From a virus (Duplodnaviria > Caudoviricetes), in the IMG/VR virus record IMGVR_UViG_3300031857_000001: a stretch of DNA of 64,000 nucleotides; one strand, written 5' to 3'. Position 1 is the first letter of the stretch, and the number at the start of each line of letters is the position of its first letter. The translations under genes and the position numbers were made by a program. Below are positions 28,948 through 37,609 of this stretch, one piece after another. Under the pieces are notes generated by a model, which searched no databases, was not told the origin of the DNA, and worked only from the letters and a program-made list of their open reading frames with translations.

Positions 28948-29439
28948 TTATATGAAGGATTTTCTAAATTCTTCCCATACAAACTCAACTTGAGGATTTA
29001 CAACGTCTGAAAATATTGTCGGTTCATATGGTTTTTTGAGTAATTTCATTCCGGCTTCATCCGGTGTTTTATTGTCCTTTGTTCTGTTACATGAAGAACA
29101 ACAAGTAACAAGATTTAACCAAGTATTTTGTCCACCTCGTGATTTAGGAATAACATGGTCAACAGTTAAATTTCTTTTACTACCACAATAAACACATTGA
29201 TAATCATCCCGCCTAAAAAGTCTATGACGATTAATTTTTAATTTGTGATATCTGAATTTAACATAATTGAAAAGGCGTATAATAAGAGGTCGAACAAATG
29301 ACCTTAAACCTGCCATAATTGGCTGGTCGTGAGACTTTAATATCTCCGCCTTACCCTTATTAACCAAATTAAAACCTTTAAAAACGGTTGTTACGTTAAT
29401 GGGGGTGTAGTCCGAATTTAGTACTAATACCTTTTCCAT
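28948..29439 (-). CDS. HNH endonuclease (McrA-like)
   Basis: VLVLNSDY.P, RDDYQCVYCG...LTVDHVIPKSRGG..W.NLVTCC..CN..K. Confidence 0.9.
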   Translation of the reverse strand: MEKVLVLNSDYTPINVTTVFKGFNLVNKGKAEILKSHDQPIMAGLRSFVRPLIIRLFNYVKFRYHKLKINRHRLFRRDDYQCVYCGSKRNLTVDHVIPKSRGGQNTWLNLVTCCSSCNRTKDNKTPDEAGMKLLKKPYEPTIFSDVVNPQVEFVWEEFRKSFI

Positions 29440-29557
29440 CTATTTATTCAATATCTCAAATATACAAAATTTTAATCACATAAAAAATAACATGTGAAAA
29501 AATAATTTATTTGGTTATTTGGAAAATGTTCGTATATTTGTGGTGTGAATAACATAT

Positions 29558-29840
29558 GTCTCCGTAGCTCAGTAGGATAGAGCAACAGCCTCAAAGGGGG
29601 CGTCTGATTAGAAATAATCAGATGGAACTTCTCGAATTCGGTGAAACCTTCCGAGTAATGTCGATGGTAATACCGAGCCAAACCTCAGAAATGAGGAAGT
29701 GTGTAGAGACTAAGTGGGAAGCACCTAAACAAATTAAGTTGAAGGTGATGATATAGTCCAGACCACAAACCGAAAGGGTAGTGAAAACTATAGTGGTATG
29801 TCTAAGCTGTGGGCCACAGGTTCGAATCCTGTCGGGGATA
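29558..29840 (+). tRNA. tRNA-Arg(UCU) interrupted by a group I intron after U33
   Basis: Exon 1 is 29558-29591 (GTCTCCG..ACAGCCT) and exon 2 is 29801-29840 (TCTAAGCTGT..TTCGAAT..CGGGGATA). Joined, they give a canonical cloverleaf with loop CT-TCT-AA. Confidence 0.92.
29592..29800 (+). mobile_element. Group I self-splicing intron (209 nt, no ORF)
   Basis: The 5' splice site follows U, with P1 GCCU|C paired to GGGGC (U.G wobble), and the intron ends in G. Core elements: P GAATTCGGTGAAA, Q AATACCGAGCC, R GTAGAGACTA and S GATATAGTCC. Confidence 0.9.
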
Positions 29841-30368
29841 CTGGTAACTCAATTGCTCACCGTGAATTTCGCGGTGGCAATTTGAGCACAGTAACATACA
29901 TTTATCCAATTCATCAATTATTACTTGGTTAAATGAGTATATTTTAAGATGTGATAGAGTAAAATCTTTTTCTTCAGGATTCAAATGGTGGAACTCTAAA
30001 GCTCCAATATATTTATCATATCCACATCTTTCACATTTACCCCCCTTATAATCTACCATTTCTTTTTTCAATTTTCTTTGCCTCTCAATTGTTTGCATAT
30101 TTGTACATTGCTTACAATACACTGATGAATTTTCTTTACCCCTTCTACTATAAAATTCAGAAGTATCACAGTCTTTTTTACATCTAGGACAAAATCTAGT
30201 TTCACCATAAACCTTTTTCCCCATTTGTTTAAAAGGTTTATTTGGAAATTCAACATTATGTTTTTTTGCCCAATATCTCACTGTTGTTAGTCCTTTACCT
30301 GTTTCCTTACTTATTTGGTTTAGAGATAAACCACTATTAATTTTCCCAATTAAAAATTCTTTAGTCAT
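29802..30368 (-). CDS. HNH homing endonuclease-like protein (HTH + Zn finger + HNH)
   Basis: N-terminal HTH-like segment, CPRC..C..C, YKGGKCERCGY...ALEFHH...ELDKC.LLCSNCHREIH. The last 13 codons are antisense to the tRNA 3' exon. Confidence 0.85.
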   Translation of the reverse strand: MTKEFLIGKINSGLSLNQISKETGKGLTTVRYWAKKHNVEFPNKPFKQMGKKVYGETRFCPRCKKDCDTSEFYSRRGKENSSVYCKQCTNMQTIERQRKLKKEMVDYKGGKCERCGYDKYIGALEFHHLNPEEKDFTLSHLKIYSFNQVIIDELDKCMLLCSNCHREIHGEQLSYQYPRQDSNLWPTA

Positions 30369-30437
30369 ATGGATAGTTTTTATATAAATATCCATTAAGT
30401 TATTTTTTTATTGGAAATTATTGACTATATTTGTGGT

Positions 30438-37331: not shown

Positions 37332-37453
37332 AGTCAGGTGGCGGAATGGTAGACGCAGCTGTGATGATTTTGTTGGAAGGTGAATCTCCTTAAACTATTA
37401 GCAAGGTTAATCAACTCCCAATCATCGTACAGGTTCGAGTCCTGTCCTGACTT
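37332..37453 (+). ncRNA. tRNA-like RNA lacking a canonical anticodon arm (122 nt)
   Basis: AGTCAGG/CCTGACT acceptor, class II-type D-arm GCG-GAATGGTAGA-CGC and ACAGG-TTCGAGT-CCTGT T-arm. The centre is a long GATGATT/AATCATC-closed branched arm. Confidence 0.7.
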
Positions 37454-37609
37454 CGCGTTCCGAAACAAATACAACGGATAGTGTGCCCCACACGAAGATA
37501 AACGGAGTGATGTCCGTAGGAGGTTTGGTATCACAGTAAGGCTGTGTACGACTGTTGACTAGTCGGCCCAAGAAAAGGTAAGAGTTGGTGGTACCTTGTT
37601 AGTTAATAT

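Follow-up and report, generated by a model that had tools for sequence, protein, structure and literature searches.

The tRNA-Ile(CAU) intron of Azoarcus sp. BH72 is a group I ribozyme of the IC3 type, about 205 nt in length, for which crystal structures exist. The tRNA, a bacterial one, is interrupted after position 36; the intron is near-minimal in size and ORF-less, and carries GAAA tetraloops on P2 and P9. In phages, the cyanophage psbA intron is mobilised by the free-standing endonuclease F-CphI, and Bonocora and Shub are said to have described in 2009 an ORF-less intron of a T7-like phage that is likewise mobilised by a free-standing nuclease. Nucleases of this kind also occur within phage tRNA clusters, the HNH enzymes of T5 among them. 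SegB of T4/T6 is a further free-standing nuclease located in phage tRNA clusters (PMC13096335).

Split tRNA genes have been surveyed most broadly by Williams (2020; bioRxiv 10.1101/2020.01.27.920355), who located 5,292 of them in assemblies from bacteria and thereby brought the known types to 21. In the numbering of that preprint, position 2 is the U33/34 site (as in fMet.2Ug) and position 3 the 34/35 site (as in Leu.3Ug). The seeds, in the parts of the preprint accessible to us, include Arg.3Ug, Arg.5Ug and seven site-2 types (fMet, Met, Leu, Thr, Ile2, Lys and Phe), and Arg.2Ug, that is arginine at 33/34, is absent from the 22 seed types given there. The list of four bacterial cases on which the original prediction for our locus drew, Leu(UAA), fMet, Ile(CAU) and Arg(CCU), is therefore outdated, as the 21 types of the same preprint, so far as accessible, take in Arg.3Ug and seven types at 33/34. 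Introns in tRNA-Arg-TCT have also been noted in Beggiatoa and Thiomargarita (PMC4853749). For phages, a 2014 review noted that, numerous as phage tRNA genes are, every intron known at the time interrupted a protein-coding gene (PMC3984707). A report on the Lak megaphages (Devoto 2019; PMC6784885), as far as its text was available to us, stated that phage tRNA introns were previously unreported and called its own "enigmatic"; no intron class was assigned to the Lak inserts there despite a test against Rfam, and one of them is tRNA-shaped. In open-access full texts we came across no account of a phage tRNA interrupted by a group I intron, several of the texts mentioning introns in protein genes only; such absence is not proof. 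The locus described below shares with Lak the placement of an intron within a phage tRNA gene, but the insert is a textbook group I ribozyme.

The window, by which we mean the whole 64,000-nt stretch of DNA analysed, belongs to a complete viral record of 321,403 bp with direct terminal repeats and 32.7% G+C. Its major capsid protein is of the T4 Gp23 type (Pfam PF07068, 212 bits), and the record is therefore assigned to a T4-like jumbo phage. Among the 6-7 tRNAs of this phage there is one tRNA-Arg, with anticodon UCU, and its gene is split on the plus strand. Exon 1 (29558..29591), delimited by ARAGORN in intron mode, comprises the acceptor 5' strand, the D arm, the anticodon-stem 5' strand, C32 and U33. 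It is followed by an ORF-less group I intron of the IC3 type (29592..29800; 209 nt), identified by Rfam and by consensus and single-sequence folds. Exon 2 (29801..29840; ARAGORN) begins with the anticodon U34 C35 U36, continues with A37, A38 and the anticodon-stem 3' strand, and ends with the variable loop, the T arm, the acceptor 3' strand and the discriminator A; CCA is not encoded. No endonuclease ORF is present inside the 209-nt intron, the nuclease genes of the locus lying outside it.

The gene had been proposed, on reading the sequence, to be a tRNA-Arg(UCU) interrupted by a 209-nt group I intron after U33, and both search tools agree. The Rfam group I covariance model RF00028 matches window positions 29582-29782 over the full length of the model with 75.6 bits (gathering score 50; E 2.1e-17), which is the sole such match in the whole genome. 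With the -i option, ARAGORN calls a tRNA-Arg(tct) interrupted by 209 nt of intron and places the same junction, exon 1 ending in agcct and exon 2 starting with tctaa; in its default setting, without intron mode, the program does not call the split gene at 29558-29840. Since standard tRNA finders miss split genes, phage tRNA repertoires are under-counted. Removal of the intron was expected to restore a canonical tRNA, and the joined exons indeed fold as a clean 74/75-nt cloverleaf with the loop CU-UCU-AA (ARAGORN), the predicted ligated-exon junction being ACAGCCU-UCUAAGCUGU. A seven-membered anticodon loop results from this junction only, and from no other choice of a U ahead of the 5' site combined with a G ahead of the 3' site. 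The joined exons can be aligned with intronless homologues (73-75 nt) with no indel at the junction, which is the best available in-silico check of the predicted splice product.

A putative Bacteroidota-type promoter can be read from the sequence upstream of exon 1, at 29510..29540 on the plus strand, where TTTG (29510-29513) is followed after 19 nt by TAtaTTTG (29533-29540). This reading uses TTTG-N19-21-TAnnTTTG, which we take to be the Bacteroides promoter consensus. The element lies in a stretch that is conserved in relatives (L306-L308), with 17 nt separating it from the start of the tRNA, and we infer that it may be the tRNA's own Bacteroidota-style promoter. A hairpin at about 29850-29886 was considered as a terminator of the tRNA and rejected, as it lies inside an HNH coding region and has no U run.

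The helices of the group I fold can be placed on the plus strand of the intron and its flanking exon bases. P1 pairs GCCUC (29588-29592) with GGGGC (29597-29601) and sets U33.G at the splice site; P2 (29603-29610/29615-29622) is capped by a GAAA loop, and P3 (29628-29633/29716-29721), P4 (29638-29643/29671-29676), P5 (around 29647-29667) and P6 (29677-29702, again with a GAAA loop) follow. P7, formed by GACUA (29708-29712) and UAGUC (29754-29758), completes the pseudoknotted core, with P8 at 29722-29747. The 3' part is made up of P9.0 (29762-29766/29793-29797), of P9 and P9a (29770-29791) with two GAAA loops, and of the terminal G (omega G) at 29800, so that the intron has a three-way P9.0/P9/P9a end, a feature that sets it apart from the Azoarcus intron. 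P10 is weak or absent, as is usual among tRNA introns. An unconstrained minimum free energy fold of the single sequence recovers P1, P2, P3, P4, P5, P6, P8, P9.0, P9 and P9a at -62.2 kcal/mol (z = -4.45), a value that none of 200 shuffled sequences equalled.

Covariation was assessed in an alignment of 15 distinct split tRNA-Arg(UCU) genes, the window's and 14 others from IMG/VR contigs. The consensus structure that RNAalifold derives from it contains the tRNA arms and P1-P9, with compensatory changes in 42 of the 70 predicted pairs. Once P7 is added, 97.2% of pair cells are standard pairs, a share that falls to 37-43% if the 3' partners are displaced by 1-3 columns, and both sides have changed in 43 of 75 pairs; the observed values were reached by none of 500 shuffles. 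The core helices P3, P4, P6, P7 and P8 covary, as does the acceptor stem, and the anticodon stem that closes across the intron shows both-side changes in four of its five pairs. The U.G in P1 and the G before exon 2 are kept in all 15 homologues. It follows from the covariation of intron and exons that the RNA is under selection for exactly this fold. The original prediction had named the exon boundaries, the conserved core, the terminal G and the U.G pair of P1, and each was borne out by Rfam, ARAGORN -i and the 15 homologues; that the intron and its boundaries are real we regard as almost certain.

By homology with proven members of the family, we infer that the intron very probably self-splices in vivo. 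The precursor would be transcribed from its own putative promoter and the intron would fold into P1-P9, after which free guanosine bound in P7 would attack the bond after U33, which the U33.G wobble of P1 marks. In the second step the terminal G (29800) would occupy the guanosine-binding site and U33, through its released 3' OH, would join U34, to give a 74-nt tRNA-Arg(UCU) that host enzymes would trim and complete with CCA. AGA had been described as heavily used by this phage, and it makes up 1731 of the 2535 arginine codons (68%) counted in 208 long ORFs; because of this share, the phage would need the spliced tRNA if it relies on its own tRNA-Arg.

The kinship of the intron can be traced through its core. 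Its core strings match rows of the Williams (2020) seed alignment, in the part accessible to us, including that of the Azoarcus tRNA-Ile intron, a proven self-splicer: J6/7-P7 (GUGUAGAGACUA) and J8/7-P7' (AUAGUCCAG) are near-identical to those of Azoarcus, and P2 and P9 are GAAA-capped in both. The two differ in that the Azoarcus intron follows position 36 and the window's follows U33 of a phage tRNA-Arg. A 16-nt motif that runs from the P7 3' strand through P9.0 (AGTCCAGACCACAAAC) is found exactly in at least 120 bacterial genome stretches, from cyanobacteria, Bartonella, rhizobia and others; Nostoc, Scytonema, Trichodesmium, Mesorhizobium and Bradyrhizobium are among the carriers, as are many MAGs. 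The tRNAs split at these loci, according to ARAGORN, are Leu(UAA), Met(CAU), Arg(CCU), Arg(UCU) and others. The same exact motif occurs in at least 119 IMG/VR virus stretches (loci L058-L174), roughly half of which lack a tRNA assignment by our ARAGORN-based heuristics; among the tRNAs assigned, Leu(UAA) is split most often, alongside Met(CAU), Arg(UCU), Asn, Lys, Gln, Ile and others. Both surveys rest on the exact 16-nt motif and on these heuristics. Splice sites were anchored on the P9.0 3' strand and 152 of 243 sequences were left unassigned, so that the tRNA and site counts are a sample rather than a census; assignment by brute-force ARAGORN over all U/G pairs was dropped as too ambiguous. 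A compact P2, the lack of P5abc, the presence of P9.0 and the GNRA loops are further traits that it shares with established members. Judged by these matches, the window's intron belongs to the classical IC3-type family of bacterial tRNA introns (Leu.3Ug, fMet.2Ug, Arg.5Ug, Ile2.5Ug and newer types), and this family is common both in bacterial genomes and in uncultured phage contigs, its occurrence in the latter being unreported to the extent that we could establish.

Comparison of the locus with named phages by BLAST gave only core similarity, to introns in protein genes (the HTVC120P capsid gene and a crAss-like helicase gene), and further core similarity to huge uncultured phages. The cultured jumbo phage Agrobacterium phage Atu_ph07 (MF403008.1, about 112.9-113.25 kb; L376 586-947) has an unannotated split tRNA-Leu(UAA), in which a 278-nt IC3-type intron ending in G separates CUU from AAAA and a "hypothetical protein" CDS is annotated over the 3' part. 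Introns of the same family, 205 nt and 700 nt long, split the tRNA-Leu(UAA) of two huge uncultured phages, at L003 520-810 (LR756501, 735 kb) and L377 394-1180 (LR756511, 595 kb). RF00028 at E <= 0.01 has no match in the tRNA-Leu introns of Atu_ph07, LR756501 and LR756511; as the model misses three clear phage tRNA-Leu introns, an Rfam-negative result does not mean intron-free. The intronless tRNA-Leu genes of cultured cyanomyoviruses (S-CAM4, S-TIM5, ACG-2014j and others) are about 93% identical to the exons of the intron-bearing gene in L081, an uncultured relative, and the presence of the intron is therefore polymorphic in cyanophage tRNA-Leu as well. Two further tRNA-Arg(UCU)-like genes (L048 and L049, in IMGVR_UViG_3300021387_000091 and IMGVR_UViG_3300028048_000103) are split after U33 by inserts of about 101 nt that are not group I introns; these hold an acceptor- and T-arm-like tRNA shape of their own and resemble the "tRNA inside an intron" of Lak.

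The position of the intron within the anticodon loop distinguishes it from bacterial introns in the same isoacceptor. All seven bacterial Arg(UCU) introns that we sampled split the tRNA after U34, with CCUU before the intron, G as its last base and CUAAG after it. On virus contigs, nine distinct Arg(UCU) genes are split after U33 and six after U34, and the pattern of the 33/34 form (the motif, 20-48 nt, GTCTAAG) was found on 15 IMG/VR contigs besides the window's record. Neither the 33/34 nor the 34/35 pattern for Arg, searched with the exact 16-nt motif, turned up in a sample of 401 genomes from a Bacteroidota lineage, the phylum of a Saprospiraceae MAG, a sample that does not amount to proof of absence. 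Within the samples taken, Arg(UCU) introns at 33/34 are thus seen only on virus contigs. The original prediction knew of no phage with this combination of isoacceptor and site, and we likewise found no report of it, from phages or elsewhere, in the open-access literature. As far as we could find, the novelty lies in where the group I intron is situated, in the tRNA of a phage and at 33/34 of tRNA-Arg(UCU); the kind of intron itself is known.

Two described groups, as represented in the accessible parts of Williams (2020), share one half of this combination each. The bacterial Arg.3Ug introns agree with ours in family and isoacceptor, in a collinear P1, in the P2-P9 architecture and in the P7/P9.0 motif; they differ in that they cut the loop after U34, as in the sampled bacterial genes above, whereas the window's intron cuts after U33, between CCU and UCUAAG, starting with C and ending with G, and has its wobble one base pair earlier. 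The cyanobacterial tRNA-fMet intron and the other site-2 types have the same U33/34 site and the universal U33 as the -1 uridine, but fMet.2Ug, Met.2Ug, Leu.2Ug, Thr.2Ug, Ile2.2Ug, Lys.2Ug and Phe.2Ug all interrupt tRNAs other than Arg.

The step between the two Arg sites can be followed in two pairs of the alignment. Pair 36:52 is U.G in the nine 33/34 introns and U-A in the six 34/35 introns, and pair 37:51 is C-G in the former and U.G in the latter; the reactive wobble is therefore shifted by one base pair, one U having changed sides. A tree of the intron core, built without P1 and the last four bases, places the window's intron in a well-supported clade (100/97) with those of L017, whose core is 96% identical, and L007. 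The remaining six 33/34 introns form a second clade (84/95) and the backbone lacks resolution; the data neither establish nor reject a grouping of the nine Arg 33/34 introns in one clade (AU p = 0.207), so that the site may have arisen once or more than once, from Arg.3Ug or from a Met/fMet site-2 intron. The 33/34 and 34/35 introns of tRNA-Arg make a natural pair for the study of group I splice-site shifts.

The split gene is flanked by two genes for free-standing HNH endonucleases, both on the minus strand. One encodes 163 aa (28948..29439; Pfam HNH_5 2.5e-16, HNH 1.2e-14; phrog_16726 4.7e-40), is divergent from the tRNA, and is present in relatives with or without the intron; 64 related virus loci are known to us for this protein, many of them adjoining tRNA genes. 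The other encodes 197 aa (29802..30395; phrog_2255 E 6.6e-39, Pfam HNH only at E 0.003) and is referred to below as HNH-197. Its last 13 codons or so run antisense through exon 2, and its stop codon TAG (29802-29804) lies 1 nt from the 3' splice site.

A survey of relatives, identified by way of these two proteins, for intron-less alleles found them at the same locus in L306, L307/L308 and L309. In L306, whose flanks are 85-92% identical to the genome studied here, an uninterrupted 75-nt tRNA-Arg(UCU) occupies the locus, the gene for HNH-197 is missing and the next gene starts 12 nt past the tRNA. In L307/L308, from a 322-kb sibling genome, the intronless tRNA-Arg(UCU) is a divergent allele, and the ORF that comes after it, HNH-like and 200 aa long, is an unrelated one (L308 2171-2773); the locus thus shows three combinations of allele and nuclease across relatives. 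Intronless tRNA-Arg genes are found also in L309, at the same locus, and in L295-L297, where they stand beside homologues of HNH-197 (79% aa identity in L295/L296). The exon bases that pair with the guide are GCCU in the intron-bearing alleles and GAUU in the intronless L306 and L309. In L017 and L007 an HNH-197 homologue (81% and 61% aa identity, respectively) occupies the same position beside an intron-bearing tRNA. Intron and HNH-197 are therefore both present in the window, L017 and L007 and both absent from L306, yet HNH-197 homologues also stand beside the intronless genes of L295-L297; the six 33/34 introns of the second clade have no HNH-197 neighbour. From shortly ahead of the tRNA to shortly past the start of HNH-197 (29550-30407), the window is 86% identical to L017, while the other aligned stretches of L017 reach only 65-72% identity to this genome.

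Judging from these comparisons, the intron is an optional, horizontally moving passenger rather than a built-in part of the gene, and its presence or absence at the locus may reflect either a gain in the window's phage or a loss in its relatives. In the window the whole split gene forms a cassette with HNH-197. The excess identity of 29550-30407 to L017, together with the HNH-197 genes co-located in L017 and L007, is as expected from co-conversion of a mobile cassette, and suggests spread with the help of the nuclease and with co-conversion of the exons. Similar arrangements are known from the cyanophage psbA/F-CphI and T7-like systems, where an ORF-less intron likewise lies beside a free-standing homing-type endonuclease gene, is present or absent among relatives, and is accompanied by exon differences between alleles; there, however, the introns are in protein genes, whereas here the intron is in a tRNA and the predicted nuclease gene runs antisense over the 3' exon. 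Taken as a whole, the explanation that we consider highly probable is that of a genuine IC3 intron, predicted to be self-splicing, carried as an optional mobile passenger by the sole tRNA-Arg of the phage; it would spread among phage tRNA genes, possibly helped by the adjacent nuclease.

A more specific account extends this explanation and does not exclude it. HNH-197 may cut the uninterrupted tRNA-Arg(UCU) of rival phages near the anticodon region, with the intron and the GCCU exon bases making the resident copy uncuttable, so that the intron would be copied together with the nuclease gene into the broken rival by collaborative homing, and would protect its bearer at the same time. The overlap of HNH-197 with exon 2 up to 1 nt from the splice site fits this account, as do the joint presence of intron and nuclease in the window, L017 and L007 and their joint absence from the near-identical L306, the greater likeness of the cassette than of the remaining genomes between phages, the GCCU/GAUU difference, and the third relative (L308) with a different tRNA-Arg allele and a different HNH gene. 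The HNH-197 homologues beside intronless tRNA-Arg genes speak against it, as do the six other Arg 33/34 introns without such a neighbour and the fact that both HNH families are common across phage tRNA arrays generally. On this mixed evidence we hold the account tentatively, as possible but on balance doubtful. Rather unlikely, in our estimate, is its fullest form, in which the split tRNA gene and the overlapping HNH gene would make up a composite selfish cassette directed against the uninterrupted tRNA-Arg(UCU) of co-infecting phages, and the intron, lying one nucleotide off the usual Arg site through the shift of the U.G in P1, would confer immunity. If it were true, introns and nucleases would be at war over phage tRNA genes, and simple compensatory changes would be enough to slide a group I splice site. 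The locus, with its intron-plus and intron-minus relatives and three HNH neighbours, offers a ready test system for nuclease-assisted mobility in tRNA genes.

It had also been suggested that splicing gates the decoding of AGA, and that the precursor, its anticodon loop being split, is shielded from anticodon nucleases. A gate acting through timing or the GTP pool would have wide effects in this phage, as a delay in splicing would affect nearly all its proteins given one tRNA-Arg and an AGA share of 68%, and tRNA-cleaving defences and phage tRNA counter-measures are real (e.g. PMC13096335). The comparisons lend no support to either role, however: the closest relatives lack the intron at the same locus, the same intron family interrupts many different phage and bacterial tRNAs, and no regulatory element is visible at the locus. 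A precursor that does not decode would protect nothing before splicing, and once spliced the tRNA shows nothing unusual in its anticodon loop. The intronless alleles of the closest relatives and the HNH cassette fit an optional mobile element better, and we consider a gating or shielding role very improbable. Least probable of all is that a decayed, non-splicing intron has left tRNA-Arg(UCU) a pseudogene and the phage dependent on host tRNA. In favour of this, the Rfam model flags some non-canonical pairs in P1, P2 and P8 and splicing is a prediction from sequence; against it, all core helices are intact and covarying, the U.G and terminal G are invariant in the 15 homologues, compensatory changes have left the cloverleaf of the exons perfect, the putative promoter is conserved, and the core remains 96% identical to that of L017 within the clade that L007 shares.

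As an optional mobile passenger, the intron leaves the general understanding of group I introns unchanged. Its interest lies in the fact that the interrupted tRNA is a phage's and that the intron is a textbook group I member, from a family that splits tRNAs on at least 119 IMG/VR stretches, allowing for those without an assigned tRNA, and in the cultured Atu_ph07. The region of the phage genome that holds the tRNA genes contains further structured RNAs. A full-length GOLLD RNA (Rfam 298 bits) is located at window positions 41796-42189 on the plus strand, and a match to the tmRNA model, with a low-confidence middle part, at 43769-44146 on the minus strand (90 bits). A tRNA-like element of 123 nt at 37332-37454, called by ARAGORN as Ile(aat) with a 44-nt insert, has a T arm and an acceptor stem whose 7 bp are perfect, but its D and anticodon arms are poor.
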